64,000 bases of DNA from a virus, in the IMG/VR virus record IMGVR_UViG_3300027743_000001, positions 1-64,000 of that record. One strand, written 5' to 3'. This document shows positions 5,812-40,981 of the stretch, piece by piece. Within the stretch, counting starts at the first letter, position 1, and the number at the start of each line of letters is the position of its first letter. A model generated the notes under the pieces. It was not told the DNA's origin and did not search any database. It saw only the letters and a program-made list of their open reading frames with translations. The translations under genes were made by a program, and so were the position numbers.

Positions 5812-5837
5812 CAAGCTATCGAACAGAGAGGGTCACT

Positions 5838-24052: not shown

Positions 24053-25705
24053 TTACGGTGTAGCCGCACCGGCGCAGCAGTAGCCCGTGTCGTCGAGCGG
24101 AGAAGTGATCCACAGCGGCAGTCCGCCGACGTTGGCCACGCTCTCGAAGATCTCGGAGAACTGCATATAGTCGTTCGTCCGGACCAACGTGGAGTCCCGG
24201 ATGAGACCGAGGTCCAGCGTGCCGCCGTCGAGCAGGAGCAGGGAGCCCTCAGGGTAGAGCGCCCACTGAACCTGGCTCGGGAAGTCCGGCAGAGGCACCG
24301 GAGTCGCCAGCGCGGCCTCATCGAAGGGCAGGTAGAACCCGCCCGGAGGAGCCGTAGTGGCGCCGCCGCCCGCGTCTGCCGCCGGCAGGGATGTGGTCGG
24401 CTGCCACGTGTCCAGGGACCACGTCACCGTGATGCCAAGATCGTTGAGGATACTGTTCAGCTCAGCCTCGGACATCGAGTAGTTGTCGGAGAGCCGGGCC
24501 GTCGAGTTCTCAGCCGTGACACTGTCGGAGACCATCAGGTCGCGGAACCACGACGGGATGATCGCGTGCAGCCGCTCGTTGTCAACCAGCCGGTTGACAT
24601 CCCTCAGGTAGGCCGCCGCCCGGTGGACCGTGCGGATGAAGTCCCGGATCGCGCCGTACGCGACGGCCGGGCCGGTCACCAGCTTGGAGAGCGACTTGAT
24701 CTGCGCCAGGAGCACCGACTCGGCGAACCGTGCCTGCTGAACCCGGAGCATCTGGGTATTGGCCGTGACCATCTCCGGGAAGATCCGGGACTGGAGCACG
24801 CCGAACTTGATACACATCGTGATGGCCTGAACCTCGGCTGTCTGCTCCGGCGGGCAGTCCGCGCGGATACAAACCTTCCAGGTCAACTCGTCGGCCGGGT
24901 CAACGGCTTCGTCGTCATCACAGGTCCAGACAGCGACGCCGCCGGTCACGTCCGAGAGCTTAGGCCCTTGGAAGTACCGGATGCCGCCACGGTCTGCCTG
25001 AAAACCGGGGAGCGCGCCGCGCACCGGCCGGTCCGTGTCGCCGATCGTGTAGAGGTCGTAGCGGGTCTCCAGCGGAGCGCAGCAGCCGCCGGCCGCCACG
25101 ATCGCCTTGGTGCTGGTCACTGCCTCGATCTTGGCCTTGTTGCCTTCCAGGTCACCGTTGTAGAGAATGCGGTCTTCCGGCGCCTTCGTTTTGATGGACG
25201 CCACGACCACCTTCTCGCCAGTGCCACCGCTCAGGCCGTGGAGGGTCCGAATGCGCTTGGTGAAAGCGTCAGCGAAGTCCTTCAGGGTCGGAATTACGGT
25301 TCCTGCCGAGTAGCCCGGGATGTCAGCACCAGCGACCACCGTACTGGTGGGCGCCACGGTAACCGGCTCGCGGTCACGCGGAACGGTCAGAGCGCCGCCT
25401 GTCTGCTGCTCCACCGGGTCACCTTCCTTTACGTCGTTGTTCTCCTCCACAGCTGCCACCAGCTGCGGTTCCACTACTGCCGCCGGCATAGCCTCGGCCG
25501 GAGCTTCTTCCTCGCCGCCACCCTCAGCACGCTTAGCCAGCTCAGCCGCCACCTGGTCCAGCGCCTCAGCGAGGCTGGCCATGAGCGCGTCGTCGGCTGC
25601 CTGGTCGGCCGCGTCAAACGCGGCTGTGATCTCGGACTGAAGATTGGTCAAGTCTTCGTCAGTGAGCGTGGCAAGAGCTGCGAGCTTCTCCGCGAACTCG
25701 TCCAT
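24053..25705 (-). CDS. major capsid protein with N-terminal scaffold-like region
   Basis: Acidic helical N-terminus; AIVAAGGCCAPLETRYD, LPGFQADRGGIRY, DGGTLDLGLIRDSTLVRTNDY. Confidence 0.93.
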   Translation of the reverse strand: MDEFAEKLAALATLTDEDLTNLQSEITAAFDAADQAADDALMASLAEALDQVAAELAKRAEGGGEEEAPAEAMPAAVVEPQLVAAVEENNDVKEGDPVEQQTGGALTVPRDREPVTVAPTSTVVAGADIPGYSAGTVIPTLKDFADAFTKRIRTLHGLSGGTGEKVVVASIKTKAPEDRILYNGDLEGNKAKIEAVTSTKAIVAAGGCCAPLETRYDLYTIGDTDRPVRGALPGFQADRGGIRYFQGPKLSDVTGGVAVWTCDDDEAVDPADELTWKVCIRADCPPEQTAEVQAITMCIKFGVLQSRIFPEMVTANTQMLRVQQARFAESVLLAQIKSLSKLVTGPAVAYGAIRDFIRTVHRAAAYLRDVNRLVDNERLHAIIPSWFRDLMVSDSVTAENSTARLSDNYSMSEAELNSILNDLGITVTWSLDTWQPTTSLPAADAGGGATTAPPGGFYLPFDEAALATPVPLPDFPSQVQWALYPEGSLLLLDGGTLDLGLIRDSTLVRTNDYMQFSEIFESVANVGGLPLWITSPLDDTGYCCAGAATP

Positions 25706-25854
25706 GAGTCTGTTCCCTCCTTATTCGGGCACACCTCAGTTGTTAGCTGAAGAGTTACGCCCGGTTGGGTAGGAGTTGTCACTACCCGGATGGAGGGTCA
25801 CTCGGTTCCCACAGAGTATGACACAGCGATCTGGGTCACAAGCCGGGCTGACAG

Positions 25855-25883
25855 TTGACAGGGGTTGACCAGCTGTGTATAGT
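25855..25883 (+). promoter_or_regulatory. SigA-type promoter with tandem GTTGAC
   Basis: TTGACA-N17-TATAGT; GGGGTTGACC in the spacer. Confidence 0.85.
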
Positions 25884-25924
25884 TGCCCTTGTACCGCCCA
25901 CCACCACCACCCAAAGGAGTCCCC

Positions 25925-26233: not shown

Positions 26234-26300
26234 TCCACACGCAGGAGCGCCCACCGACTTAGGTCTGGTGGGCGCTTCGCTTATTGCCTAATGTACCCCC

Positions 26301-26615
26301 ATGAGGCTGAAGTTGCTCCTTGTAGCGCTGCCGCTCTTGTTGCTGGCCAACTGCGCACTGGCTACCCCCCTATCTTCGTGGGGATTCAGGATGCCGAACT
26401 TGGTTGGCACGAACCTGTCAAGTGCTAAGGGTCGGTTGACAGCCCTCGGATTTCCCGCCGAGAACATCGTGGTGTTTGCCGGGGACTCAGCCCCCGACCC
26501 CGTCATGGAATCCCGGTGGGTTGTGGAATCACAAGAACCATCGCCGGGGACGATGGTTCCTGTGTGTGAGGACTGCTATGTGAGCTTGGTGGTCATCCCT
26601 TTGCTGCCCGAATAG
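26301..26615 (+). CDS. secreted PASTA-domain protein
   Basis: Signal peptide, then MPNLVGTNLSSAKGRLTALGF...WVVESQEPSPGTMVP...VSLVV. Confidence 0.75.
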   Translation: MRLKLLLVALPLLLLANCALATPLSSWGFRMPNLVGTNLSSAKGRLTALGFPAENIVVFAGDSAPDPVMESRWVVESQEPSPGTMVPVCEDCYVSLVVIPLLPE

Positions 26616-29007
26616 CGTTCACCCGCTCGCGGATCTGCTTCATCCGCTGCTGCCGGGCCGCCTCGCGTGCCCGGGTGACTGCCTCTGACGCCGGCTGCTC
26701 CACGGGTGCCGCCGGCTCCGGCGTGGCTTCCTCCTGCTCGGCCTCCGGCTCCGGGACTGCCTCCACCTCAACCTCATCCGTCTCCGGGAGGGGCTCCGGC
26801 TCCGGGTCGGTCACCACGATCTCCTCAACCGCGTCTTCCTCCGGGGTGAAGAGTGCCGTCTCCACCGCGTTCAGCCTCTCCAGCACAGCTGCGTCGGCTG
26901 TCATGCTCGCCTTGAGCACAGCGAGGGACCGCGCGCCGGCCGCCACCAGTGCAGTTACCGCGCCACTAGCGACCCTGGCCCGAGCGATCGGGAAGCCCGG
27001 CACGTTGACCTGGCAAACCGCGACCAGCTCCAGCGCGCCGTTGATCGGCCGCCAGTCCCCCGATGGAGCCGACGCGCGGAGCGTGCGTACCTGCTCAGGC
27101 TTGATGTCCGGCCGGAGCGCGCCGGCCACCCAGATTCCGAACTTGTCCTCGCCCACGACCACGTCAGCCACTGCACTGGCCGTGTTGTCGTAGTGCGCCA
27201 CCGCGTGCCCAGCGTCCGCGTTCAGCGGTGCGTGGCCGCCGGCCAGTGTCAACTGGCCCACGTTCACGTCCTTGCCGCTGGCCGTGCGCAGGGTGCCAGT
27301 CATGAAGTAGCTGTAGTTCGAGCGGGAGCGCGGCGGTTTGACGCTGCCGGGGAGCCCGATGTGCTGCTGGTGCCAGTCCGCGATGTGGCCGAACACCTGC
27401 CCGTCATCCGTGTGAGTGAGCGGTGTCAACCGGTCCAGCTTCTGATCCTGAAGCCACTCGTCGGGCGGAGCCACGGGGAAGCCGCCGGCCAGGACGGCGC
27501 GCACCAGGCCCACGTCGTCCAGTGCTTCTGTGTAAATGCCGTCCTTCAGCATGTTGACGTTCCTTCCTTGAGTGTCCATCCACGCTCCGGCCACCAGAGC
27601 CGCGAGCACAGCCTGCTCGGTTGACATGGCCGCTGAGGCGTGCACATGCCCACGTCCCCGGCCCCGGCCAGGCCACTTCCCTAGAACCCTCTTGTGGAGG
27701 TTCGCGCAGTAGCCCTCAGCCCGGCCAGGCATGTATTTGTTGAGCTGACGCACGCAGCGCTTGAAGTCCCCCTTGACGCCCCACTTGATCTTGGCAGCGC
27801 CCTTCCCGGATGCCCAGTAGCGCCGGAGCTTCTCGGCCCGTGGGTCCGGGGATACAGCAGCCGTGACTCCGTCGATCTGCGTGATCACGTCAGCCAGCGA
27901 CGGATCATCCAGCTCCACGAGCGGGGGAGGGTTGACGCCGGCCAGCTCCGCCAGTAGCTCGGGGTCATCCACCCATGCCTTCTGGTCATAACGCTGAACT
28001 TTCGGCCCCGGCATGAGCCGGACCAGCGCGATCACAGCGCCGGGATCCAGATCATCGACCACTGCGAACGGGGTCCACTCCTCTTCCTCGGCCTCCGTGT
28101 CAACCGCTGCCGTGAGGGGGGAAACGATGGTGTCGTCCTTGAACGACTTGGCCGCCTTCTTATACAGACCGTTGACCCGAGACTTGATCTTGTTCTGGTC
28201 AGCCTGCGGGATCTTGACTCCGCCCCGGGCGCCGGAGAGAGCACCGGCCACCGCCGCCAAAGCGGAGTACACGATCTTGAGGTCCCCGTTGATCACGTCT
28301 GCGAACGGGAGTTTCCAGGCCGCCTGCGTCTGTGGGTCCGCGTCAGGGTCTCGGTAGAGGAATCCCTGCCCGAGCTTGCTCGTGTCGTAGGTGCCGTCCG
28401 CCTTGCGAGCCCGGGAGAACAGCCGGTTGGTGGCCGCGTCTCCGTCCCACTTCCGGCTGCGGTCCGCAAACGGCAGATCCGTGGAGCCGCTCACCGAGGA
28501 CAGGAGAGCTAGGTCCGGGTGCCCTGAGTGCAGAAATGCCGAGGGAGCCAGCCATGCTTGCGGGGTGTAGCACCTCAGAGCCAGGCCCTCCGCCCCCGCC
28601 AGGAGAGCATCAGCCAGGTCCACAGCGTCTGGCATGGTGAGCAGGATCAGGGGGTCAGAGCCCTCCCAGGGATCCCAGGCGCCGGCCGCCGTCAGCACTT
28701 CGTAGGAAGCTTCCCCCACTCGCCGGACCAGCTGCCGATAGAGCATGTCGTCGGCCGGGTCCGCCGTGGCGTAGAACCCGACGTCCTCACAGTCCGAGTC
28801 GGGGCAGGAGAGTGTGTCCCGCGCCGGCCGGCTCAATGCCGAAAGGGCGGACTCCAGAGTGTCGTCCGCCCACTTGCCACTTTCACCGCCAGACGCAGAG
28901 AGCGCCAGCAGCTGCCAGGCTCCCACTTCGTGCTGGCTAACTTCCTCACGTAGGCGCCGAGGAACCGGGTAAGCCTTGTTATATCCACACATGACTAGTG
29001 ATGTCAT
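26593..29007 (-). CDS. multidomain capsid maturation (prohead) protease
   Basis: C-terminal VFGHIADW...HYDNTASAVADV...GIWVAGALRP...SGDWR...VNVPGFP; extra domains (KLPFADVING; LRRYWASGKGAAKIKWG...CANLH). Confidence 0.85.
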   Translation of the reverse strand: MTSLVMCGYNKAYPVPRRLREEVSQHEVGAWQLLALSASGGESGKWADDTLESALSALSRPARDTLSCPDSDCEDVGFYATADPADDMLYRQLVRRVGEASYEVLTAAGAWDPWEGSDPLILLTMPDAVDLADALLAGAEGLALRCYTPQAWLAPSAFLHSGHPDLALLSSVSGSTDLPFADRSRKWDGDAATNRLFSRARKADGTYDTSKLGQGFLYRDPDADPQTQAAWKLPFADVINGDLKIVYSALAAVAGALSGARGGVKIPQADQNKIKSRVNGLYKKAAKSFKDDTIVSPLTAAVDTEAEEEEWTPFAVVDDLDPGAVIALVRLMPGPKVQRYDQKAWVDDPELLAELAGVNPPPLVELDDPSLADVITQIDGVTAAVSPDPRAEKLRRYWASGKGAAKIKWGVKGDFKRCVRQLNKYMPGRAEGYCANLHKRVLGKWPGRGRGRGHVHASAAMSTEQAVLAALVAGAWMDTQGRNVNMLKDGIYTEALDDVGLVRAVLAGGFPVAPPDEWLQDQKLDRLTPLTHTDDGQVFGHIADWHQQHIGLPGSVKPPRSRSNYSYFMTGTLRTASGKDVNVGQLTLAGGHAPLNADAGHAVAHYDNTASAVADVVVGEDKFGIWVAGALRPDIKPEQVRTLRASAPSGDWRPINGALELVAVCQVNVPGFPIARARVASGAVTALVAAGARSLAVLKASMTADAAVLERLNAVETALFTPEEDAVEEIVVTDPEPEPLPETDEVEVEAVPEPEAEQEEATPEPAAPVEQPASEAVTRAREAARQQRMKQIRERVNAIRAAKG

Positions 29008-29035
29008 GATGTTGCCTCCCAGTGCCTCTCTGGCC

Positions 29036-29269
29036 CTAGACTTTCGTGTTGTCCTTGATCCACTCGTTCACGGTAGCTTCGTCGGTCTCTTTCCATCCTG
29101 GCTCATCGTGGATCTCCAGGAACAGCCGATCTTGATCTTCCTGCCACTTCCCATCTTTCCAGAACTCGGTCTCCGTGGTTTTCGGCCAGCCCCAGCGAGC
29201 CACTAACAGCGGCTCTCCGGTCTGTTTGCTCTTGTACATGAACCATGCTGTCGGTTCCATCACCATCAT
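29036..29269 (-). CDS. putative immunity protein (IapK-like) for the upstream toxin
   Basis: 77 aa, overlaps the toxin stop codon; aromatic/acidic pattern LVARW...EFWKDGKWQED...ETDEATVNEWI. Confidence 0.65.
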   Translation of the reverse strand: MMVMEPTAWFMYKSKQTGEPLLVARWGWPKTTETEFWKDGKWQEDQDRLFLEIHDEPGWKETDEATVNEWIKDNTKV

Positions 29270-31290
29270 CCTCTCATCACTGCTGCTACATTTCCTACAT
29301 CGGCAGGACGCTCCAAGGGTTTAGAGATTTCGAACATCTGCCGCTCCAGCTCCTCCCAGGGTGGGCTGTGCTTTACCAGCTTCCGCTGCCGCTCGTAGAG
29401 CAAATGCTGCCTGTCCTTGGCCCGTTGGGACTCAGGGGTGTGGAACTGGAGTTCAAACCGATGTCCATCGGGACCGGTGATGTCGGCGTTAATGCCCTTG
29501 TAAGCGCGTCCCTCGTTATTCCAGGAGTTGCTGACATCTACGTCATAGCCCTTGGCTCTCAGCTCGTTGATCACCCGCTGAGCGTTGGCCCCGAAGTTCT
29601 CCGGGTCATAATGCAGAGTATACCGCAAGGCATCACCGATCTCACCAGCGGCCTGCTCAGGCCCGCCGGGCAGCTTGGCCCCCTTGCTTGCGATCTTCCG
29701 GACTAGGCTGCCCTCAGTCTTCAGCCTGAACTCGCCGCCGTAGAACTGTCCATTGTCTCCGATGATCTTGCTCGGGTCATAGTCGAGACCATCAACACCG
29801 CTGATCTCACTAAGCAGGCGACTAACTACCGGTTCATCGGCCTCTACGCCAGCCAGGATCTTCCTAGCCTCGTCTTGACTCTCTGCTCCTCTTGTCACAA
29901 GCGAACGACCTGTTTCCTGCGCCCCAGTGTTCACGGGTTTTTTGTTCCTCAAGATCGCAATAGCTCGTGGAGCGTCTGAAAGTTTGTCTACGATCTGCTG
30001 TGTAGGGATTATCTCGGGGAACCCGGCTGCCGGGTCGGCTGCTTTGGGATTGCCTAGGGCATCCACGTATTCGAGCTTGGCCCCGTTCGGGGTTAGGTCA
30101 ACCACCTGTGCCCGACGCCGGGCGGCGCTGCGATCACCAGGGAGTGAGTCCGGATCGGAGAACACGTTCACCATGCCGAACTTCTCGATGAACTTCCCAT
30201 CCTTGCCACGGGGGTGCAGCCAATCTCTCCAGTCGATGGCCGCGATGATGGCCGGGTGATCCAGCAGCCTGTGCTCCCGCGCCCGCATGATGAAGGATCC
30301 GAAGAACCCCAGCGGCTCCGTGCCGTTGACGCACAGCTGCACGTATTGCTTGGCAGCAGCCACGACAGCTGACGCTGCCGTGGCTTCCTCAAAAGGGAGG
30401 ATGACCCCGTCATCAGCAGTAGGGAACTCCGGGAGCACCTCCGGGGCCACCTTACCCAGCTGCCACTCCTGCGGGATCTTGTCTAGCGCGCCGAGAGCAT
30501 GAGCCCGTTTGACCACGTACCACCGGCTATCAGGGTGCATGATGGCGTAGCGCACGGCTATCGGGAGATCTTCCGCCCGGTTGACAGAAGGGATGCTGTT
30601 ACCTGCTGCCACGACTGCGGTCTCCTGTTCAAGCGGTGCCGGAACCTCTCCCGGCATCTCGATGGTCTCTACCTCGCCCTGCGTCTTGGTGGGCAGGTCT
30701 GCCACGCTGACCGTTGTGCCGCTGGCATCGCCCGCGTCCCACACCGCCAGGGCGGACGGGGCAACCTGCACCAGTGACATGTCATCCAGAGCCGTGTTGC
30801 CCTCAGGGAGCAGGATCCACTCCCCGTCATACCGCACGTAGGCTCCCATGCCCGTCTCGATAATCAGTGTGACTACTGTGTTGTCGGGTGCGACCACAGC
30901 GTCCAGTTGGAGTGCCAACATTCCTCCCCTCATTATGTGAGCCTCAACCACTGCGAGCGGCTGCGGTACACCGGCGTCTGGTGCCATGGTCACTGCGTCA
31001 TATGGATCCAGCGGTCGGATCCGTAGTGTCTCATCCGCTGCCTCAGGGTTTGAGAAGATGGCCGTCGCCGTCAGGACACCGCCGCCCATGTCAACCGGCT
31101 CGGAGATAAAGGTGCCCCGGGTGTTGTCCTCATCTTCATCCCACACCAGCATGAGACCGTTGTCGCCGGTCTGAATCTCGACGTTGGCCCCGTAGCGGAT
31201 CGAGGTCGTGTCGTACCGCGCCGAGGTGACCGGATCAGTCCTGTGGATGGTCACCTCGATGATGGCCGGATTAGGGACTCTCATGATCAC
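29266..31290 (-). CDS. head-module protein with C-terminal RelA/SpoT-like (Apk2-type) nucleotide pyrophosphokinase domain
   Basis: FRLKTEGSLVRKI, GDALRYT, NSWNNEGRAYKGIN, FELQFHTPES, HLLYERQR. Confidence 0.88.
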   Translation of the reverse strand: MIMRVPNPAIIEVTIHRTDPVTSARYDTTSIRYGANVEIQTGDNGLMLVWDEDEDNTRGTFISEPVDMGGGVLTATAIFSNPEAADETLRIRPLDPYDAVTMAPDAGVPQPLAVVEAHIMRGGMLALQLDAVVAPDNTVVTLIIETGMGAYVRYDGEWILLPEGNTALDDMSLVQVAPSALAVWDAGDASGTTVSVADLPTKTQGEVETIEMPGEVPAPLEQETAVVAAGNSIPSVNRAEDLPIAVRYAIMHPDSRWYVVKRAHALGALDKIPQEWQLGKVAPEVLPEFPTADDGVILPFEEATAASAVVAAAKQYVQLCVNGTEPLGFFGSFIMRAREHRLLDHPAIIAAIDWRDWLHPRGKDGKFIEKFGMVNVFSDPDSLPGDRSAARRRAQVVDLTPNGAKLEYVDALGNPKAADPAAGFPEIIPTQQIVDKLSDAPRAIAILRNKKPVNTGAQETGRSLVTRGAESQDEARKILAGVEADEPVVSRLLSEISGVDGLDYDPSKIIGDNGQFYGGEFRLKTEGSLVRKIASKGAKLPGGPEQAAGEIGDALRYTLHYDPENFGANAQRVINELRAKGYDVDVSNSWNNEGRAYKGINADITGPDGHRFELQFHTPESQRAKDRQHLLYERQRKLVKHSPPWEELERQMFEISKPLERPADVGNVAAVMRG

Positions 31291-34200
31291 ACCTCATAGC
31301 TTTCCGGCAGATCGAGCAAGTTGCGGAGGTTCGGAGGCATGTACACGGGAGGCAGATCGGATGGCCGCATGGTCTTGGCCTTGGCTATGGTGACGATGTA
31401 CCGCTCTAGCGGAACCCCGTTGATAGAGACAATCCCCTTGGCCTTCAGCTTCGCGATGGCCGAGTCGACTTCTTTCTGGCTCGGAGCCGCGATCATGCTG
31501 GCCTGCTCCGGAGCGATGCCACCGCTAATGTAGTAGTCCTTGATGTTCTCCCATACCGTAAGGCTCCGCATGATGTTGCTGCCATTGTCAGGATTCCCGT
31601 ACACATCCTCCAAGGAACCGCGCATGTCACCGATGCGACCGTAGAGAGCCTCAGGGTGGTGGTAAATCATGAGTCCACCGGAGATATATACAGCCTGGTC
31701 GTTGTGGTCCGGGAGGTAGTTGTACTTCTTGGCTGAGGCATAGGCGCCATGTCCGGCGTACACGCTGGAATCGTGGACTGCGGACTGCCCGAGTCCCTTA
31801 CCAGTGGGAGCGTCCACGGCGCCCTGAAGCCGTTTGGTCATGCTGTTGACGTTGCCATACAGTGCTGTAGACGCAATGACATCCGCGTTGTTGCGCTTCG
31901 TGCCTTTGACCACAAGGTTCATCTTGCTCTTAGCCTTCATGGCAGCGATGGCTCGCTCAGACCAGAAGTAGGAAACCTTACCGATCGACTCATCAACGCC
32001 CACTCGAACGTCCTGCCAGCCCAGATCAGTGATACCCATCCACTCTCCGGCCTTCTTGAACATCTGCTCATCCGACATGCCCTGTGTGTTGTCAGCGTTG
32101 GCCTGGTCGAAGCTGACCATAGTGGACAGGAAGACCCGCGCCTGCTGCTTGGCCGAAGACTGCGTCATGGGGGAGTAACCACCCAGGCCCAGCTCAGCCA
32201 TGGCCGCCGAAAGATCCCCATCGGTTGCACCCTCAGGAAGGAAGATGTTGGTCATTCCAAACCGGGAGTCATTCTTGTACTCGCTGGCCGGGTCGATCAC
32301 CTCTATGACAACCCCGTTGCTAGCTACCAGCCGCACATTGCGGGACGTGCCGAAGTCAGGAAATGCACTCTTCGCCAACGGGACACCCTGTCCCGGCTCC
32401 ACATACAAGGTCCCGTCCGCCTGCATGCCAGACAGGCCGCCGTCTTGGGCGACGGTCCATCCCCTGGCCTGTGCCGACTGGCTCAATGAGAACTGGCCGG
32501 TCTGAAGTACCTTGATCTTGGTGGGGTCCCACGCGGTCACGGTGTAGGTGTGACCAGCAGACCACGGGGTAGTGACCGTGGACCCATCAGACAGGCTCTT
32601 GAAGGTCACTATCTTGCCGCCGGTAGCCGCGTCGTCCTGCACGTCCACCACTTCGTAGTTCGGCGGGTTGACGCCAGAGTTGTCCGGCCGCCACTGGCTC
32701 TTGAGTTCCGGCTGGCTGCTGCTTGAAGGCCGGATAGATACCCTCTCGCCTACCGCGATGCTCTCCGTAGGCTTCTTGGTGCGTACCCAGTCGCCCTGCT
32801 CCTGTGTGTCACCACTAGCCAGGTTGCTGGCAAAGGTCGCACGCTGCTCCTTGGAGAGAGCGAAGATCACCCGGTTGTACTTCTTACCGGACGGCCCGAT
32901 CGCGCGGGTCGTGAACATCTCCCCACCCCGGATGCCGGTGGAGTTGGTGACGATCGCCCGCTGCTTGCCGTCCTGCAAGGTCTTGCCCAGCGCCTCGGCC
33001 GGCGTGTCAACCGCCAGCGCCATTCCCTTAGGAACCTCCAACGGGGCCAGCGGCGCCTGGTAAGGGCCGTACTCTTCCGTGTCGAGCCGGAGCGCCGTGA
33101 CCAGCCGTGTCGACTTCTCTCCGCTGCTGGTGAGGACCACCGCGCTCTGCTTGTTCTTGCTGAGGCTGATGATCTTGCCGTGCATCGGACCCTTGCCGGT
33201 GACGTGCATGCCCGCCGTAGGGATGTAGCCGTCCTTGGTGAGCGGGCCGCCCCACGCCAGCACCACGTCCTCACTAGGTGCGCCCGGCAGGCTGGGCTTT
33301 GGCTCGGCAACGGGAGGCTTAGCCGCGTAGACGGCATAGTTAGACGGCATCTTGTTGGTGAGGAACATGGAGTGCTTGCCTTGGTCAACTGCTACGGCGC
33401 CAGGCTCATGCCCCACAGAGTAGTGGTGGAAATCTATAAACTCACCATCTATCTGCACCATCTGCATGTATTCATTGGGCTTGTGGGGGTCCCCATAGGA
33501 CACATAAATCCAGTCCCCAGGCTTCAGGTCCATACCCTTGAAGTCGGAGGCTAGGGTGATCTCCATGGTGCTCGGGTGGGGTGCCCCGATCGCGTCGTTG
33601 GCACCAGAGGCTGCCGTCTGAGGGAAGGCGCTCGGAGGAGCAACTGACAGGTCAACCTTCTGCATGCCGGAGAAGTTGCTGCCATAGACTGCGAACTCAG
33701 CTTTCTCTAGCTTCTTGGTTTCGTAGTCCTGGTAGAGCTGGTACATGAGCGGGTCGTCGGGGTCCGCGTTCGGGTCCGACACATAGACGTTGTACAGGGT
33801 CTTGTAGAGCTGCTCACCCGGCTGAAGCTCATACGTCTTGCCGTTGAACTCAATCCCAGTGACTGCCTCGACATCAACTATCTGCGGGCTGGCACTGACC
33901 GGACCAGGCCCGGAGAGGTCCGGGGGAGTCAGTGCGTCGTACTCTCCCAGCGTTCCCTGCGCGACAGACATCTTGGCATCACCGATGCCGCCCTGCGCGA
34001 GGAAAGCCAGCACAGTGGACTCGTCATGGCCAACAGTGGTGTTGATAGTTCCGTCAGCGGAAATCGCGTTGTACTTGCCATCGGGCTGCTTGACCAGGTA
34101 CTGATCCGGGATCGTCGGAGTCTGGATCTTGATGACGATGTCATCCGGCTGAGTCGTCAAGCCGTTGAACGTGCCGCCCGTAGGTCCGACATTCGGGTCG

Positions 34201-37200
34201 GGGTTGAACAGCTTGTTGAACATCCCTTGAACGGAGGGGGCTTCAGCATCAGAAGCAGCCTGCGTGGGGAAGGGGGGCGGGTCACCCTCCGCCTGGTGGA
34301 CCAACGTCTTCTTGTCGTTCGGCACCAGCCCCATGACGTGATGGGTGATGGAGGCGCCGCCCAGCTGGCCGTCATCCTTGATCGGCCACCAGGATGCACC
34401 GGGAGCGGACTGGATGTAGTAGGTGTTTGAGTCAGATATGTAGACAACAGACTCCCAGCTGCTTACCTCATAGAAGCTGTTGATCTTATCGCCAGTGGCA
34501 ACCTGATCCGGCACAGCAGGGGCGATGTCAACCACGTCAACCTGGTTGCTGAACGGGTCATGGTAGAGGTTGACCTGGTAAGGGCTGCCGTCTGAGTTGT
34601 ACTTGTTGACGGTCGTGCTTACATCAATGGAGTCATCACCGTCTATGTGGTACCAGTTGGAGCTGGCCGGAGAGGCGATGTAATACTCATTGCCGATCTT
34701 GGCAACCTGGTTTCCGGACTGAACGGATACCTTGTACCCGTTCGGGAGAGTCAACTCCTCAGTGCCGGTCCCCTGGTGGAAGTTCTTCAGGCCCATGGGA
34801 CCCTCTTGGTCGCCATCACCGACCCACGTGCCGCCCGTTCCGGCAGCGTTCACTGTCCACATCTGCCAGCCGGAAGTGGTGTGCCGACGCCAGAAGGTGC
34901 CCGACCCAGAGACAAAGATCGGATACTTCGCGTCGTCGTACTTGAGCGCCTGGTTGAGTGCCCAGCCGGCCGCGTCCTGGCCCTGGTTGCCGGTCAGCTT
35001 GTGGTCGTTTGTGGTACCCGGCCCGGCCTTCAGCTTCGTGGCCATATCATTAGCCGCGTCGATCTGGCCCTGCGTCAACTCAGCATCTATGTAGTCGGAC
35101 CCCTTACGGGTCACCCGGATACTCACGTTCGGGCCGAAGTCCTGTTTGGACAGGAGCTGAGGTGAAACTGTGCCAGCGTCGACTACTACAGCTACCTTGT
35201 CATCTCCCAGAGGCAGGTTGTTCTCCACCACGACGAATAGGTACTGGCCAGCTTCAACCTCATCTCCCGGTTCCAGGTGGGGGATGATCTGGTGAGCCGG
35301 AAGATAGGCACCGTCCTCATCGAAGATGCTGGTTTCGGTCTTCTCCACGAGCGGAGCATCTGCGTCGTACGTACCAACGGTGCCATCTGAGAAGGCCAGG
35401 TAAACAAGACTAGACCCTTCAGGGGCATCCACAAAGGTGACCACTACGACGTCATCGCCGTTGTGCACCGACTCGCCCGGCTTCAGTCCCTGCGCGGGGA
35501 CCATCGGGCCGCCGTGCGGACCCGTCGCCCCCGCAGACTCCGGCAAACCAGAAGACTCCGGGATGACCGTGGGGGTCGTGTCAACCGTGAAGTCATTCAG
35601 GACAGTTTTCAGTACGGTGAATGGAGTTTCGTTCTTGTCTATCATCCGCACCGTCGTGTCGGTGATAGCGATGATCTCGTAGCTGTTGTCGGGGCTACTG
35701 ATCGGGCTGACCTTGTGGCCGACCTTCAGCACGCCACTGTCGATCCAGGCCGCCAGCGTCTTCGCCTCATCCACCTGGCTGACGGCCGTGACCGCCGGAG
35801 CCATGGGGGAAGGTGGCTCCGGCACCGATACCGGCTCAGGCTCAGGCTCCGGAGTCGTGTCAACCGTCGCTCCGGCTTCCTCCGTGATGGTCACCGTGCT
35901 GACTGACTTACGCTTGCGGACGCCGGACGTGTTCTCGATGAACACGAACTTGCCGTCCGGGGAGATCATCACGATCTTGCCCTGGTGGCCGTCCTTGGCC
36001 AACGCCGTCATGCCGAGCTTAGGAACCTTGCCGTCCCCCGTCATCGGGGTCTTGGCGCCCACCACGTTGGCCGCCGGGGTCTTGCCAGGCTGCGTCAGGG
36101 TTGACGCCGCCTTCATCAGCTCCTTGCCGTCTTCGTCCTTGACGACAGCGCTGTAGCCCTTCTTCTTGACGTAGGTGTAGGTCTTCCCGTCCTTCTTGGA
36201 GACCACCTTCGCACCGGGTCCGGCCTCGGTACCGTCACCCAGAAGCATGCCCTTGTCATCGCTAACGACAGACTTAGCCTGCGCCTCGGCCGCCGCCTTG
36301 ATGTCTTCCTTGACCTGCGTCTCTACGGTGGCAGCCATGCCGGTCTTCTGCGGCGGTTCCGATATCTCCACCTCAGGCTCCGGGACGGGCACCGGCTCCA
36401 GCAGCTGGACGATCTCCTCCACCTCGGCCTCGGCAGCCTCGGGGAGGTTCGGCTTCTGCGCTTCCGGCGGAGGCGGATCCCAGCGCTCCACGATGTAGGG
36501 GCCGGATCCCAGGGCGTAGGTGTCCAGGATTACCGATGTGGTGTTTCCCTTGTCCCGAAGCATGACCTTCTTTTTGGCGGGGGAAACTCCCATCACCTCA
36601 TAGGTGTGGCCGTTCGGGTCGGTGATCGTGTCCCCGCGCTCGAACTTGATGGTGTGAAGATCAGCAGCATCCAGAGCGGCGCCATGGTGTGGCCGTTCCA
36701 GGTTGGTCAACGGGCTCTGGTAGTGGACATCCGTCTTAGAGCCGTACTTGTCCTTCAAGGCCCATCGCTGGTCTTGCAGCTCGTCCGGCTCCATCAGGCT
36801 GCCGTCAGTCAGGTCAACGCCGATCCTGATAGTTCCCGATCCGATCCGGACGTAGTCGCCAGGTGACGCCATATCCAGAGCTTGTCCGAGGTTCATCGGG
36901 AACCACTTGCGGGACAGGCCGTTGTTCTCGGCTACGTCCGGGACGTTTATCGGCTTGGAGGCTTCCGGAAGCGGGAGTCCATAGTGGTCAGCAATGTACC
37001 TACGGCGCGACTTGAGCGTGTCAGCCAGGGACTGAGGTAGTCCACGCTCAGAAACCAGGTCATCAATTTCTTCCGGAGAGATAGCCAGAACCCGGACGGC
37101 GCCATCCAGCTCATCCTCCTTAGGCATCACGTTCTCGCCGAAGATGGCAGCCTTCTTACCGGACCGCATGGTCTCCAGCTCCATCACCTTGTTACCGAAG

Positions 37201-39479
37201 GCGCCGCCCTTAGGTTCGCCTTGAGCCCGGTAGGTGAGAGCCCCGCCGTTGTCGATCCGCCAGGACGTGCCTTCCTTGTCGACGAACACGTTGTCCCAAC
37301 CGAGGCCGAAGACATCCCAGTTCGAGAGCCAAGCGTCAACGACAAAGTTCTTGCGGATCTGTGTCAACCACTCCTTGTCCTTCAGCTTCTCATTGATCGT
37401 CTGGCTGAGTTCCTCGCCCTCCACGATCTCGGAGTAGATGTTCTTTCCGTCGTAGTCGACGTTCGGCACCGGGACGCCAGCCGCTGAGTACAGATCATTG
37501 GCCAGCTCCTCCACCTTGCCGTGATCTTGGCTCTTGGGCTTCTTGACGTAGAACTTCTTGGCCGGGCCGCCGGCAGGGTCCGGGATGCTGTACATCCCGC
37601 CTTCATTGCTGCCGCCCTGCCCGCCGATCTTCGTAGACCCAGCGTCATCCTTGGTGAGGTGGGCAATCTTCTTTGGCGCGCGGTAGACCTGGTTGGGGCG
37701 GAGCGTCAGCTCCTTCTCGCCCGGGGTCGGCGTGCCAGACAGGTCGGACGGCTGAACCTTCAACTCAGCTTTGTCGTCTGACCCCTTGAGTATGTCCTTG
37801 ACCTGCCCGTACTTCCACTTGCCATTCTTCAGGAACTTGATGATCCCGAACTTGTTAATGAACCGGCCGTCCGCGCCACGCGGGTGTTCCCACGGCTCGA
37901 AGGCAGGAGCGGCCACGATCGGTTCCAGGAGGGGTGTCACTTCGATGCTGTTGAACAGGCCCAGCTTCTCCCAGCCGGTACCGTCGTCAGCCAGGGAGGC
38001 GTACATGACGTTGTTGCCGTACTCGTCGTCAACCGTGATATAGGTCTTCTCGTCTTCCCAGCCGGGGCCATGTGTGACCTTCATGGAGACGGTGTTGGGG
38101 TCGTCGTGCGCTCCGGTAAAAGCGAAATCGAACTTGCTCTCCCCGACCCAGAGAGAGATCGTGTCAAAGGATACTGTGGACGGAAGATGGCTCGGGTCTG
38201 TGACCTCGATCAGGAAGTCGTTGCCGTAGCCCAGAGTGATGTGGGGTATCCACTCCGGGTGCTGCTCAACCGTGCTCATCTGGTAGGCAACAACCGGGTC
38301 TGCAACGACAGCATCCCTCACACACGACAGTGCCACGTCCTCAAGCAGGAGCACCGCCGCGTCGTGGTCCCCCAGCCGGCCCCGCCCGTTCACCTCGGTC
38401 TCGATCGGGGTGCACTGCTTGGCCAGGTCGCCGAGACACTTGAGCACGTGATCCAGTTCGTCGGTTGACATGTCAGCGCTGAGGTAAGCCAGGGTCACGT
38501 GCGGGTCGTCGTCCACTACGAGCGCATTGACCGGGTCGTCAGCTGAGGTACGGCAAACGATCACCGCCGTAGGCAGCTCCTCCACCGGCTCCATCTCGTC
38601 CAGGATCAGGTCCGCGAGCAGTGCCTGAGGGAAGTTGTGCCCGACCGGCGGCCCGTAGTCGTACCCCATCGTGTAGTCAAAGACGAACGGGGAGAGGTCG
38701 GCCGATCCGGTGATCGCGTTCAGCTCCTTGGTGCGCCGCTTCACCTCATTAGATGCTCTCTTGACACGGGCTTTAGAGATCCTGACTTCTAGTTCCTGCA
38801 TCTTCCTGCGGGCGCGTAGAGTGCGCAGCTCTTTGACCCCCTTGGGGGTCAATCCAGGTTGTCCGCTAGCGGTGTCAGACGCCTTCTCAAGCTCCTTGAT
38901 CCGGGCATCATGTTGTCCAACCTCTGCTTGCTGCTTAACCAGCGACGCTTTCTGGATCTCCAGTGCGTCTTGCGCCCGTTCAATGCTGAGCTTGGCCTTT
39001 GCCTTGGAAGCCTTCAGTCTCTTCGCCTTGTTTGCTGCCGAGGTTCCGGAACCCTTGGAGGAGCCACCCCCGCCGCCGCCGCCGGACTTCTTCTTGACTC
39101 CGCCCTCATCCTTTGCCTTGGAGAGATCTTGGTTGAAGTATTTGGCCAGCACGTTGAGGGTCTGCACGTTGAGCGTGCCCGTGGGCTTCAGGCCCAGCCC
39201 AGTCTGATAGTCCTTGAGCGCCCGTGCGGTCTCCGGGCCGAAGTAGCCAGTGGCTGGCAGGTTGTAGCCGGCTCGCCGGAGCGCTTCCTGCAGCCGGGTG
39301 ACGGCCGGCCCTTGTGCTCCGACCCCTAGGCCACCATCTTTTGTGCTGCCCTGACCGGACGTGCTGAACTTGCCGCCCGTGTCCCGCTTGACCTGTGACT
39401 CCTCGAAAGCGCGTAGCCGCTGGTTCGGGTCCTTGGCCCGACTCGGCCGCTCCCGCCTCTGTTGGCCTGGTTGCGTCAC
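31287..39479 (-). CDS. giant (2730 aa) multidomain head-module protein: PG-binding, 2H phosphoesterase, HipA/PI3K-like kinase, SH3/KOW-like repeats, possible ART-like C terminus
   Basis: PGBD GPAVTRLQEALRRAGY...GYFGPETARALKDYQ; 2H motifs PHVTL and PHITL; kinase GGSNEGG...FYVK...EELANDLY...DAWLSNWDV...DN...IDNGG. Lies directly downstream of portal. Confidence 0.85.
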   Translation of the reverse strand: MTQPGQQRRERPSRAKDPNQRLRAFEESQVKRDTGGKFSTSGQGSTKDGGLGVGAQGPAVTRLQEALRRAGYNLPATGYFGPETARALKDYQTGLGLKPTGTLNVQTLNVLAKYFNQDLSKAKDEGGVKKKSGGGGGGGSSKGSGTSAANKAKRLKASKAKAKLSIERAQDALEIQKASLVKQQAEVGQHDARIKELEKASDTASGQPGLTPKGVKELRTLRARRKMQELEVRISKARVKRASNEVKRRTKELNAITGSADLSPFVFDYTMGYDYGPPVGHNFPQALLADLILDEMEPVEELPTAVIVCRTSADDPVNALVVDDDPHVTLAYLSADMSTDELDHVLKCLGDLAKQCTPIETEVNGRGRLGDHDAAVLLLEDVALSCVRDAVVADPVVAYQMSTVEQHPEWIPHITLGYGNDFLIEVTDPSHLPSTVSFDTISLWVGESKFDFAFTGAHDDPNTVSMKVTHGPGWEDEKTYITVDDEYGNNVMYASLADDGTGWEKLGLFNSIEVTPLLEPIVAAPAFEPWEHPRGADGRFINKFGIIKFLKNGKWKYGQVKDILKGSDDKAELKVQPSDLSGTPTPGEKELTLRPNQVYRAPKKIAHLTKDDAGSTKIGGQGGSNEGGMYSIPDPAGGPAKKFYVKKPKSQDHGKVEELANDLYSAAGVPVPNVDYDGKNIYSEIVEGEELSQTINEKLKDKEWLTQIRKNFVVDAWLSNWDVFGLGWDNVFVDKEGTSWRIDNGGALTYRAQGEPKGGAFGNKVMELETMRSGKKAAIFGENVMPKEDELDGAVRVLAISPEEIDDLVSERGLPQSLADTLKSRRRYIADHYGLPLPEASKPINVPDVAENNGLSRKWFPMNLGQALDMASPGDYVRIGSGTIRIGVDLTDGSLMEPDELQDQRWALKDKYGSKTDVHYQSPLTNLERPHHGAALDAADLHTIKFERGDTITDPNGHTYEVMGVSPAKKKVMLRDKGNTTSVILDTYALGSGPYIVERWDPPPPEAQKPNLPEAAEAEVEEIVQLLEPVPVPEPEVEISEPPQKTGMAATVETQVKEDIKAAAEAQAKSVVSDDKGMLLGDGTEAGPGAKVVSKKDGKTYTYVKKKGYSAVVKDEDGKELMKAASTLTQPGKTPAANVVGAKTPMTGDGKVPKLGMTALAKDGHQGKIVMISPDGKFVFIENTSGVRKRKSVSTVTITEEAGATVDTTPEPEPEPVSVPEPPSPMAPAVTAVSQVDEAKTLAAWIDSGVLKVGHKVSPISSPDNSYEIIAITDTTVRMIDKNETPFTVLKTVLNDFTVDTTPTVIPESSGLPESAGATGPHGGPMVPAQGLKPGESVHNGDDVVVVTFVDAPEGSSLVYLAFSDGTVGTYDADAPLVEKTETSIFDEDGAYLPAHQIIPHLEPGDEVEAGQYLFVVVENNLPLGDDKVAVVVDAGTVSPQLLSKQDFGPNVSIRVTRKGSDYIDAELTQGQIDAANDMATKLKAGPGTTNDHKLTGNQGQDAAGWALNQALKYDDAKYPIFVSGSGTFWRRHTTSGWQMWTVNAAGTGGTWVGDGDQEGPMGLKNFHQGTGTEELTLPNGYKVSVQSGNQVAKIGNEYYIASPASSNWYHIDGDDSIDVSTTVNKYNSDGSPYQVNLYHDPFSNQVDVVDIAPAVPDQVATGDKINSFYEVSSWESVVYISDSNTYYIQSAPGASWWPIKDDGQLGGASITHHVMGLVPNDKKTLVHQAEGDPPPFPTQAASDAEAPSVQGMFNKLFNPDPNVGPTGGTFNGLTTQPDDIVIKIQTPTIPDQYLVKQPDGKYNAISADGTINTTVGHDESTVLAFLAQGGIGDAKMSVAQGTLGEYDALTPPDLSGPGPVSASPQIVDVEAVTGIEFNGKTYELQPGEQLYKTLYNVYVSDPNADPDDPLMYQLYQDYETKKLEKAEFAVYGSNFSGMQKVDLSVAPPSAFPQTAASGANDAIGAPHPSTMEITLASDFKGMDLKPGDWIYVSYGDPHKPNEYMQMVQIDGEFIDFHHYSVGHEPGAVAVDQGKHSMFLTNKMPSNYAVYAAKPPVAEPKPSLPGAPSEDVVLAWGGPLTKDGYIPTAGMHVTGKGPMHGKIISLSKNKQSAVVLTSSGEKSTRLVTALRLDTEEYGPYQAPLAPLEVPKGMALAVDTPAEALGKTLQDGKQRAIVTNSTGIRGGEMFTTRAIGPSGKKYNRVIFALSKEQRATFASNLASGDTQEQGDWVRTKKPTESIAVGERVSIRPSSSSQPELKSQWRPDNSGVNPPNYEVVDVQDDAATGGKIVTFKSLSDGSTVTTPWSAGHTYTVTAWDPTKIKVLQTGQFSLSQSAQARGWTVAQDGGLSGMQADGTLYVEPGQGVPLAKSAFPDFGTSRNVRLVASNGVVIEVIDPASEYKNDSRFGMTNIFLPEGATDGDLSAAMAELGLGGYSPMTQSSAKQQARVFLSTMVSFDQANADNTQGMSDEQMFKKAGEWMGITDLGWQDVRVGVDESIGKVSYFWSERAIAAMKAKSKMNLVVKGTKRNNADVIASTALYGNVNSMTKRLQGAVDAPTGKGLGQSAVHDSSVYAGHGAYASAKKYNYLPDHNDQAVYISGGLMIYHHPEALYGRIGDMRGSLEDVYGNPDNGSNIMRSLTVWENIKDYYISGGIAPEQASMIAAPSQKEVDSAIAKLKAKGIVSINGVPLERYIVTIAKAKTMRPSDLPPVYMPPNLRNLLDLPESYEV

Positions 39480-39481
39480 GG

Positions 39482-40981
39482 TCAGCCTCCAAGAATCTGC
39501 TGCGCTGAGTCAGGCATCGGGACTGGAGATTCTGCTACGTTCTGTTCCCGCTCGGCCTCCAGCACGTTGGGAAGCGCCACGTTCAGCAGGGCTACCGTTA
39601 CGTCCGGTGGCAACATTCCCTTGGAGGCAACCAGCATGAGCGCCAGCTCCTGCTCCGTGGGAGCATCCGTCTCGGCCAGCCCGTTCTCCCGGCGCCATGC
39701 CTTGGGTCCGACCAGGAAGTGCTCAAACCCGATTGTCACTTCCTCGGACTGGTTGGGCCGGGTCACGATCTGGGAGGGGTCGTACCAAACCACAACGCGG
39801 CCGACAGCTGCCGGCTCGAACCCCTCGGCCAGCAGTCTGGTGCGGAGGTACATTTCCGTGGTTGCATCCGACAGCGCCAGCGCCAGCGGCTCAATGTTGG
39901 CCTTGTACAGGTTGTCATCGATGACCACCGCGTTGCTGTACTTGACGGCCGCCAGGCCGGCCACCATTTCCTTGGGAACGTCGATGCCCTGAAGGATGCG
40001 TTCCAGGGAGCGCTCCGCCCGGTTGACAAGCCACTCATCGCTGCTGCGCTCGAACGTCAGGTGTCGGATGGAGGAACCCTGATCGCTTGGCCCGGTCACC
40101 ACCATGGGAACTACGGAGCTAGCACTGCCTTCGTCCGAGACGGGGGTGACCATAGCGTCCATCAGCTCGGCCACGAAAGCGTTGCCGGGGTCTACTACGG
40201 CCTGCTCACCATCTGTCTCGTCTGCGTTTGCCACGGTGGCCGAGGCGACCGTGATGCCATCCGGAACGAAAAGAAGGCCGGCATTCAGCCGGCTGCGGGT
40301 CGCCGAGCGGACCAGCCGCTGGAGCATCAGCAGCTCCTCGATGGAGTCCGTGAGCGCCATCAGCGAGGAGTCCGGCTCCTTGGAATACTCCGGGTGCTCA
40401 CGCCACACCCGAGCTATGTAGGTGCTTGTTGGCAGCGGCTTCTGTTCTCCACCACGTAGCGGCTGATACAGGACTGAGTTCTGTTCTACCTTGACTTCCT
40501 TTGTGGACTTGAACGCCCACTCTCCGCTGCCCGGCATCTGCATGAAGTAGACCTCGCCGGCCACGTTCATGTTGAGAGCGAAGGACCGAACCTTAGAGCT
40601 GAAGTTGGAGGTCGTGAACTCCAGCATGATCTCCTGAGCGCGCTTGGCCAGGTCGTCGTCAACCAGGCCCTTCTCCGCTGCCTCCGTGATAGAGGTCGGT
40701 GCCTGCTCCGGGTCCAGCACCACGGCCGGGTAGAGTCGGATCCGGGAGAGGATGCTGCCGACCAGGTTGAACCCGTAGTGGATCTCTCCCACCCGCTCGT
40801 ACCCGATCCAGGCGTCGGTCTGCCAGACCTCCCAGGGACGCGAGCCCGGCTGCATCTCTTTGACCTTGATGCGCTCGGTTGAAGCCGTAATAGGGCGTTG
40901 CGCGTTGTATGGCGCCGCTTTGGCCGGGCGCGCAGCTGACGGCTTGTCGGCGCGGGGATTATCGCGTGTGAAGAGGCCCAT
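39482..40981 (-). CDS. portal protein
   Basis: WQTDAWIGYERVGEIHY, SRIRLY, SRLNAGLLFVP, VVWYDPS. Confidence 0.9.
   Translation of the reverse strand: MGLFTRDNPRADKPSAARPAKAAPYNAQRPITASTERIKVKEMQPGSRPWEVWQTDAWIGYERVGEIHYGFNLVGSILSRIRLYPAVVLDPEQAPTSITEAAEKGLVDDDLAKRAQEIMLEFTTSNFSSKVRSFALNMNVAGEVYFMQMPGSGEWAFKSTKEVKVEQNSVLYQPLRGGEQKPLPTSTYIARVWREHPEYSKEPDSSLMALTDSIEELLMLQRLVRSATRSRLNAGLLFVPDGITVASATVANADETDGEQAVVDPGNAFVAELMDAMVTPVSDEGSASSVVPMVVTGPSDQGSSIRHLTFERSSDEWLVNRAERSLERILQGIDVPKEMVAGLAAVKYSNAVVIDDNLYKANIEPLALALSDATTEMYLRTRLLAEGFEPAAVGRVVVWYDPSQIVTRPNQSEEVTIGFEHFLVGPKAWRRENGLAETDAPTEQELALMLVASKGMLPPDVTVALLNVALPNVLEAEREQNVAESPVPMPDSAQQILGG

Follow-up and report, generated by a model that had tools for sequence, protein, structure and literature searches.

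A repeated HPRG-barrel module beside a protease-site-like word in two predicted head-cargo proteins of an IMG/VR virus

Polyvalent proteins, as passages of the main text of Iyer et al. (2017, J Bacteriol, PMC5512222) describe them, are of giant size and contain many domains, their genes lie next to those for portal and terminase, and packaging followed by injection is predicted for them. Among the domains they draw on are 2H phosphoesterase, RelA/SpoT, ART-PolyVal, MuF and peptidoglycan-directed ones. MuF polymorphic toxins, in the main text of Jamet et al. (2017, PMC5576092), combine a conserved N-terminus, formed by the MuF domain, with a variable C-terminal toxin, are encoded in the head/packaging module ahead of a small open reading frame (ORF), and are reported from temperate phages. 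According to passages of PMC10052503, a single protease processes capsid, portal and many internal or ejected proteins, as well as itself, in phages SPN3US and phiKZ; its cuts share one short motif, and several of them lie within long propeptides. Here a 64,000-nucleotide stretch of viral DNA is analysed (positions 1 to 64,000 of IMG/VR record IMGVR_UViG_3300027743_000001; the window hereafter), in which two proteins encoded among the head genes, P0001 (2730 residues) and P0002 (674 residues), share a folded module, denominated the HPRG-barrel module. The proteins carrying it are best read as falling within the known polyvalent/MuF cargo theme.

The initial annotation of the window, made from its letters alone, had claimed that the same module occurs in both proteins, and the claim holds. 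The two copies are:

37635..37907, minus strand: module copy 1, P0001 residues 525-615, core motif at 37860-37886 (BLASTP, motif scan, hidden Markov model)
29926..30237, minus strand: module copy 2, P0002 residues 352-455, core motif at 30190-30216 (BLASTP, motif scan, hidden Markov model)

Across all six frames, the window contains the exact motif HPRGxDG[KR]F just two times, once in each protein, and the two proteins align across about 95 residues around it (BLASTP E 1e-8). A hidden Markov model (HMM) of the core, built from 217 foreign instances, matches significantly only P0001 and P0002 among the window ORFs (E 2.8e-14 and 3.5e-19). A degenerate third copy, which had been placed at 39360-39410 (KRDTGGKFS), must be dropped, as it is not matched by the core HMM and P0001 shows a single domain. 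Other candidates were discarded as too weak: a marginal match to the motif core at the C-terminus of a 202-residue frame at 5787-6392 on the plus strand, PRDKQGRFASK ('..PRDKQGRFASKHRKSKKGK'; E 0.019, 10 bits), which is also far from the head genes, and the stretch 'LTAAGAWDPWEG' of the protease protein (core HMM E 0.9). P0002 and the protease protein are not similar (best BLASTP E 0.42). Residues 106-118 of the latter (28654-28692, minus strand; 'LTAAGAWDPWEGS'; core HMM E 0.9) resemble the first half of the junction, made of a four-residue word and W.P, without the HPRG part.

The module is about 100 residues long and made of three parts: a word fitting [LIV][TV]A[AS]; a peptide fitting [WF]xPxL-HPRGxDG[KR]FIxKFG, separated from the word by 5-10 residues; a predicted small, SH3/Tudor-like beta-barrel. 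A profile of three copies, searched against 1.84 billion representative proteins, identified 173 clusters at E<=1e-3, and 44 at E<=1e-10. The expression HPR...G.[FWYLIM] is present in 144 of 150 proteins (P0007-P0156), 102 of which have a single copy, while the rest have two to nine. Neighbouring copies in the multi-copy proteins are 105-1032 residues apart, and the median spacing of 292 corresponds to one module plus one domain. Columns were counted on the 199 of 232 instances having at least 30 residues upstream. W or F is found at -5 in 93% of these and L at -1 in 60%, followed by HPR-G(75%)-x-D(78%)-G-[KR](83%)-F(94%)-I(76%)-E-K-x-G(70%). Alignments of 70 and 100 proteins extend the consensus to '..RGxV..I.P....V...D..G....AP..KA.L', which is equivalent to the string 'GQVKDI ... 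APKKIAHL' read in the initial annotation. The module alignment comprised 68 of 151 proteins (P0006-P0156), picked by size, and the two window stretches.

Domain libraries do not cover this element. Seven module sequences have no relevant Pfam match at E<=10 and no PHROG match better than E 0.065; NCBIfam matches of P0002 are confined to its C-terminus, and none falls on the module. Single weak KOW and SH3_16 matches were found by Pfam among the 70 aligned proteins. The back-translated motif hits 117 stretches of IMG/VR viral contigs, and none when the codon order is permuted. In a collection with one genome per prokaryotic species 21 motif matches were found, set against a chance expectation of about 13 by a rough hand estimate. 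About ten appear genuine, as they lie in long ORFs and retain the flanking consensus; they come from Pirellulaceae, Desulfovibrionaceae, Oscillospiraceae, Thermomicrobiales and Microlunatus, and the others look like chance. Among GenBank phages, the P0001 module is matched by 11 records only, all from Gordonia phages. The isolates include Sixama, GodonK, Phendrix and Forza, and the listed host of the first three is Gordonia terrae 3612. GenBank phages gave no match to the P0002 gene in a nucleotide search, nor to the short module protein P0076 by tblastn. No description of an HPRG motif in a phage capsid or portal context was found in the literature searched. The passages of the main text of PMC5512222 mention neither the motif nor a repeated barrel junction ('HPR' occurs in them only within HHPRED), and no such motif was found in the main text of PMC5576092; the LPD alignments in the supplement of the former and the Ct_MAD and MuF3/4 profiles in that of the latter, which lie outside this comparison, may overlap the module. 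The module is a real and widespread family, not covered by the domain libraries searched and, as far as the searches reach, undescribed.

A structure was predicted with AlphaFold2 (AF2) for P0001 residues 500-640, from 70 aligned rows (mean predicted local distance difference test score, pLDDT, 84). The score is 96-98 over a beta-rich tract, model residues about 30-100, that begins shortly ahead of the motif and closes with the barrel. It is 55-59 over the 20 residues upstream of the module, and rises to 79 at the IVAA word. Tudor, chromo, KOW, PWWP and SH3-like small barrels are the best fold matches of the model. The top VIA match is the Tudor domain 6if4 (Z 8.1, root-mean-square deviation 1.8 over 59 residues), and many Tudor, chromo, KOW and SH3 rows have Z 6-8; the best Foldseek E is 0.011, and scores of this level may mirror a common arrangement only. 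A search of predicted viral structures placed Sixama gp73 first (E 1e-6). Modules have a net charge of +1.0 per 91 residues, and the remainder of the same proteins (P0007-P0156) a mean of -4.6. P0001 has a net charge of -90, and cargo proteins are strongly acidic outside the modules.

The virus record is 86.5 kb long, has direct terminal repeats and a G+C content of about 62%. Genes run on the minus strand in the order large terminase (TerL), MuF-like protein, three small ORFs, portal, P0001, P0002, protease fusion, a 172-residue ORF and capsid. Those that matter here are:

43371..44894, minus strand: large terminase, at the upstream end of the head block (Pfam Terminase_6C E 1.1e-9, Terminase_6N E 2.6e-6)
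42709..43374, minus strand: MuF-like protein, 221 residues, without effector domain (Pfam Phage_Mu_F E 0.0058, below cut-off)
39482..40981, minus strand: portal, 499 residues (phrog_776, portal protein, E 8.7e-88)
31287..39479, minus strand: P0001, 2730-residue polyvalent-type protein, next after the portal gene (ORF, Pfam domains)
29266..31290, minus strand: P0002, 674 residues, with a conserved N-terminal domain, the module and a toxin-type synthetase (PHROG matches at the C-terminus only)
26593..29007, minus strand: prohead-protease fusion, 804 residues (phrog_18402, head maturation protease, E 9.1e-58, residues 517-692)
26920-27519, minus strand: protease domain, about residues 497-696 of the fusion
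24053..25705, minus strand: major capsid protein, 550 residues, with a long N-terminal part before the HK97 core (NCBIfam MCP_Sipho E 1e-84)

The word that opens the module is found also in the portal, the protease and the capsid. All the xxAA and xxAS sites pointed out in the initial annotation in capsid, protease, portal and P0002 are present. The positions discussed below are:

37908..37919, minus strand: IVAA, P0001 residues 521-524, candidate protease site before the module, 7 residues before the aromatic residue of the motif
30238..30249, minus strand: IIAA, P0002 residues 348-351, candidate protease site before the module, 7 residues before the aromatic residue
40880..40891, minus strand: ITAS, portal residues 31-34, candidate N-terminal processing site (conserved word class)
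26938..26949, minus strand: LVAA, residues 687-690 of the protease protein, directly after the protease domain (conserved word class)
25451..25462, minus strand: LVAA, capsid residues 82-85, in a linker, predicted to be disordered, after the N-terminal helices (pLDDT <50 over 65-104)
25091..25102, minus strand: IVAA followed by GG, capsid residues 202-205, candidate maturation cut (near-universal in homologs)

Compared with 1000 shuffles, xxA[AS] words are enriched in the capsid (4 vs 0.62, P=0.001), in the protease fusion (4 vs 0.76, P=0.005) and in P0002 (3 vs 0.48, P=0.008), and are not over-represented in P0001, in the terminase and in the MuF-like protein. Outside the window, [LIVM][TVIL]A[AGS] is found within 30 residues upstream of 117 of 199 modules, a count that may be inflated because the search profile spanned the word positions, with a peak at -13 to -9 and a background of 189 in 5003 windows of the same proteins. 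Extra module copies found by the regular expression alone also show the word. Its presence varies with the type of locus: counting only the 145 instances with W, F or Y at -5 and 20 or more residues upstream, the word precedes the module in 9/10 cases at loci with a capsid of the window family, 18/24 with the protease, 35/46 with the portal, and 13/81 at loci with none of these.

In the portal N-terminal stretch, [LIVMP][TVIM]A[AS] is found in 30 of 35 rows (the window and 34 homologs, from ORFs of at least 450 residues), about 25-35 residues before a conserved WQ..AW core, in a sequence that is otherwise variable. In the protease protein, for which PHROG 'head maturation protease' is the only match, none having been found in Pfam, NCBIfam or PDB sequences, a word (LVAA, MVAA, IVAA, LVAS or VTAS) lies just past the last conserved protease block in all 26 rows, window plus 25 homologs. 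The capsid comparison rests on 107 of 120 listed proteins. Words number 388 in the first 206 residues of this family and 39 in the other 344, with hot columns at 28, 68, 99-100, 117, 169 and 204; at least one is present between residues 55 and 112 in 83 of the homologs. The IVAA column has a word in 103 of 107, and A204 is invariant.

In the AF2 model of the capsid (pLDDT 80) predicted helices (1-62) are followed by a disordered linker (65-104), a folded part (120-203), a low-confidence tract (204-220) and the HK97 core, and residue 169 sits in a predicted strand. HK97-fold matches to the model have Z 12-14. Mature HK97 chains (124-383) align to model residues 218-537 with Z about 14; residue 204 thus lies about 14 residues before the position aligned to mature HK97 residue 124, where a maturation cut is expected. 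The mature N-terminus of HK97, which we take to be residue 104, would map to around model residue 198, within a few residues of the conserved word. A near-invariant 'A-A-G-G-[C/W]-C-[A/S]-P' (residues 202-208; 25082-25102, minus strand) places paired cysteines right after the candidate cut.

Taken together, xxA[AS] behaves like a lineage-specific processing signal, and the shell, portal, protease and cargo data fit one common protease-recognition word. The assemblin of herpesviruses cuts at [V/L/I]-x-Ala|Ser, which resembles [LIV]-[TV]-Ala|[Ala/Ser], and by analogy the likeness suggests a cut between the two small residues. Common processing has an experimental precedent in the SPN3US prohead protease, which in the passages of PMC10052503 trims ejection proteins, portal and itself. 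A second upstream word, 'EG[IL]GG[LI]T[RK]KFDA', found at six loci, was considered as a co-variation test and abandoned; it occurs once per locus, probably in orthologs, and so provides no independent test of co-variation with head genes.

Modules are flanked by many unrelated enzyme domains in the vicinity of portal genes, an outcome of an HMM survey that the initial annotation had named as support. Pfam domains tallied in 70 mid-size module proteins are Zeta_toxin (24), AAA_33 (17), 2H phosphoesterases (3), ART-PolyVal (2) and ADPrib_exo_Tox (2), with RNase_T, Peptidase_S78_2, Topoisom_I, Acb1, PI3_PI4_kinase and GNAT found once each. In P0124 an ART-PolyVal domain (249-403) is flanked by copies at 214 and 420, and in P0142 a Pfam-significant Phage_Mu_F domain (157-309) by copies at 58 and 326. 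Most inter-copy blocks in twelve multi-copy proteins have no Pfam family. At least 200 residues extend beyond the last copy in 121 of 144 proteins, and 36 have their first copy no more than 35 residues from the N-terminus. In 16, less than 120 residues remain after the last copy; most of these are short (71-223 residues), and five longer ones end in the module.

The order of genes is also retained. With profiles seeded by the window head proteins, a portal homolog was detected in 41 of 118 viral loci. In at least 38 of the 41 the next ORFs downstream bear the motif, sometimes with a MuF-like ORF in between, and loci of sufficient length continue with protease and capsid genes. Several loci feature two to four adjacent motif-bearing ORFs. 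Gordonia phage Sixama has a gene order identical to that of the window, and the module is in the 'hypothetical protein' gp73, encoded right after the portal gp72. In 16 loci a MuF-like domain and the motif lie in one reading frame, with the module downstream; in 13 of these the motif starts 19-83 residues past the MuF-like match. Judging from the shared-frame loci, use of the module together with MuF is as common as use without it. Three items support the MuF-like label: the sub-threshold Pfam match of the seed, as the window protein scores 17.8 bits against a cut-off of 29.6; an ORF of the Sixama locus, matched by the profile made from the window protein, whose position is that of gp68, in the record a 'MuF-like minor capsid protein'; and P0142. 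Of what had been said of the MuF protein at 42709, its shortness (221 residues) and the lack of an effector stand, and the assignment to Phage_Mu_F stays below threshold. Directly upstream of the terminase gene a 600-residue protein with collagen triple-helix repeats is encoded (Pfam Collagen E 5e-10; 44907-46709, minus strand), and the next ORF upstream, 46721-47296, has tail-collar and Gp10_C matches.

P0001 looks like a polyvalent protein. Upstream of the module it features a PG_binding_1 domain (residues 56-111, Pfam E 2e-14) and a 2H phosphoesterase, 2_5_RNA_ligase2 (323-445, E 7.4e-7), and thus fits the repertoire given in passages of PMC5512222. It has two or more unrelated effector-type domains, where P0002 has one recognised effector domain only; both are encoded among the portal and terminase head genes. 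Downstream of copy 1 lies one more block:

36870..37634, minus strand: kinase-like block after copy 1, a lead only (language-model, Atlas feature, neighbours)

The neighbours of this block are PI3_PI4_kinase, HipA_2, LepB_N and Act-Frag_cataly (actin-fragmin-kinase), with scores 0.91-0.94. The kinase assigned to this place in the initial annotation is in keeping with them, and has no Pfam match. Only three xxA[AS] words occur in P0001, at 521, 2384 and 2534 (3 vs 1.45 in shuffles).

P0002 is similar in design to the MuF polymorphic toxins. Further features of this gene and of its surroundings are:

30460..31044, minus strand: conserved N-terminal domain of P0002, residues 83-277, called P2N (profile of related ORFs, E about 1e-72)
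29287..29883, minus strand: RelA/SpoT-type (Apk2-like) toxin domain, predicted, P0002 residues 470-668 (PDB and tblastn homology)
29036..29269, minus strand: 77-residue ORF, candidate immunity protein, overlapping the P0002 stop

The RelA/SpoT domain formerly read at the C-terminus of P0002 is there: it matches PDB 8vx3 'SaSAS' (E 3.9e-15), and residues 470/491-668 share 33.8-37% identity by tblastn with the C-termini of Streptococcus prophage proteins (30 matches listed), annotated in many of the listed records as minor head or head morphogenesis proteins. Mannheimia and Pasteurella prophage records match it as well. By homology the domain is related to Apk2 domains and small alarmone synthetases; MuF-fused toxins of this kind form, according to Paulet et al. 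(2025, PMC12226406), the Apk2 family of adenosine 3'-pyrophosphokinases. The toxin is variable, as expected of a polymorphic system. In P0007, a close relative found by a word-based search, the N-terminal part and the module are as in P0002, and Zeta_toxin/AAA_33 replaces RelA/SpoT, which bears out the idea of swappable effectors. The IIAA-type word is kept in P0007 and in 'P0002-like' matches, which fit ..P.[VI][LI][AT]A..W..WLHPRG.

P2N differs from the N-terminus of MuF toxins: P0002 has no Pfam match at E<=0.01, and the hhalign probability of P2N with the MuF-like profile is 2.3%, so that P2N is not MuF as far as these profiles go, the MuF3/MuF4 profiles lying outside the comparison. In five related loci (L094, L098, L063, L038, L069) P2N is a separate ORF just upstream of an ORF made of module and Zeta toxin. 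P0002 may thus be seen as the fusion of two units, with the fusion point marking a natural border. The fused arrangement was seen in the window P0002 and in P0007. A mini-module of about 45 residues ends P2N (30460-30597, minus strand; P0002 residues 232-277), comes after a VVAA word, and reads '..DLP.A......HP..RWYV.KRA.ALG....P.EW'. It is found alone, just upstream of HPRG motifs or within protease fusions, in nine loci (L016, L084, L101, L069, L071, L119, L081, L082, L098), and is a second piece common to cargo and protease proteins.

The gene after P0002 starts four bases before the P0002 end. Its 77-residue product is acidic, rich in aromatic residues, and has no NCBIfam match. MuF toxin genes usually have a small ORF next downstream, according to passages of PMC5576092; this one, shorter than 150 residues, is a candidate immunity gene. 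P0002 differs from the MuF toxins also in having the HPRG barrel between carrier and toxin. MuF toxins are reported from temperate phages in passages of the same paper, and the window record has terminal repeats.

The processing proposed here may be set beside that of other systems. For polyvalent proteins, passages of PMC5512222 propose release by in-built metallopeptidase domains, whereas in the window cutting by the prohead protease at a capsid-type word is proposed. Ejection proteins of SPN3US and phiKZ are unrelated to the window cargo, their motif is different, and no repeated junction module is described in the passages of PMC10052503.

The logic is similar to that of T4, where a short common N-terminal element is borne by different cargo proteins and a prohead protease makes the cut. 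Mullaney and Black are said to have reported in 1996 that T4 internal proteins have a capsid targeting sequence, cleaved by the prohead protease gp21. In T4 the tag measures about 10 residues and is removed, the cut being made at [L/I]-x-Glu. In contrast, the window element is a folded module of about 100 residues, and the word x-Ala-[Ala/Ser] lies upstream of it, so that the module would stay on the cargo.

We find it credible, with belief and doubt in nearly equal parts, that P0001 and P0002 are head cargo of the polyvalent or polymorphic-toxin type, each endowed with a junction module, cut at the word by the prohead protease, retained through the barrel, and leaving with the DNA. Cleavage, packaging and injection are what we infer from the comparisons above. 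Proteins of the P0001 and P0002 type would enter the prohead. The prohead protease would cut at the Ala-[Ala/Ser] word, conserved also in portal, protease and capsid, leaving each freed enzyme block with the HPRG barrel as its new N-terminus. The barrel would hold the block inside the head through the DNA, the portal or the inner shell, and the block would exit with the DNA. Since the motif preceding it resembles the phage's own head-protease site, the module probably marks enzymes for loading into the capsid, cutting and injection. In a broader version, which we put forward only tentatively, the HPRG barrel would be a general address tag of HK97-type heads, giving prohead entry to whatever enzyme block it precedes, and the lineage word upstream of it a private cut site directing the phage's own protease to the places where blocks are parted, the two forming a two-part code.

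Several data weigh against the head-cargo reading. The complete conservation of H, P, R and the second G in the motif is by construction, as these positions were set by the search expression. The three words at 521, 2384 and 2534 would leave most domains of P0001 joined, and the polyprotein formerly envisaged, cut at every domain border, does not agree with them. The link of the word to head type is not phylogenetically independent, and short loci may hide head genes. The words at capsid 169, at capsid 204 and behind the protease domain are part of conserved blocks, and could be structural. Barrel matches with Z 6-8 and Foldseek E 0.01 are of middling strength and silent on the ligand of the predicted fold, and the charge of the module is a weak hint at DNA binding. 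With fewer than 120 residues after the last copy in 16 of 144 proteins, the module is not always a header. The carrier had been thought independent of MuF; P0002 indeed has no MuF match, but the 16 loci with both in one frame, and P0142, do not conform. As a whole, the observation reported in the initial annotation is partly confirmed, and its interpretation partly supported.

It is unlikely, though the best placed of the alternatives, that the barrel is a binding domain acting in the host cell, on nucleic acid or on a host machine, with no role in capsid entry, and that packaging, if any, is left to MuF or P2N. The fold class (SH3/Tudor/KOW-like), the near neutrality of modules in otherwise acidic proteins, the MuF-like domain that precedes the module in many relatives as the presumed head-associated part, and the 16 proteins with little sequence beyond the last copy would all suit such a domain. 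The strict restriction to the portal-to-protease block fits a virion role better, however, and the excess in viruses (117 stretches vs 21 bacterial matches, about ten of them genuine-looking) speaks the same way; up to nine copies, one per enzyme block, are hard to square with a single host target.

Less probable still is that the module is a mere structural spacer and xxA[AS] a habit of the lineage or a structural element, the proteins being used uncut. The location of some capsid and protease words in conserved blocks and the lack of enrichment in P0001 are compatible with this, and, according to passages of PMC5512222, no cutting accompanies the transfer of the virion RNA polymerase of phage N4 or of some plasmid polyvalent proteins. 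Yet a four-residue word is conserved amid portal and capsid N-terminal stretches that are variable and predicted to be disordered, it stands at a fixed short distance before modules and tracks the head type, and a near-invariant 20-residue peptide is not needed in a spacer. Finally, that the module is a self-cleaving cassette freeing enzyme blocks without the prohead protease is very improbable. In its favour, the module sits at domain junctions, once per block, conservation is high at the motif's His, Arg and Asp, and autoproteolytic release, by metallopeptidase domains, is proposed for polyvalent proteins in passages of PMC5512222, but the column statistics show no conserved Ser, Thr, Cys or Asn nucleophile, the fold is predicted to be a plain small barrel, and in the 36 of 144 proteins with the module at the very N-terminus there is nothing to release.

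Injection of polyvalent and MuF proteins is widely predicted, and a folded header with a cut-like word would give a concrete, testable rule for how such proteins enter the head and are cut. As Gordonia isolates carry the module, reporter fusions and mass spectrometry of virions are feasible. Unannotated blocks lying between copies of the module become candidate injected enzymes. If true, the two-part code would account for the loading and dismantling of polyvalent proteins, and chosen proteins could be loaded into capsids.

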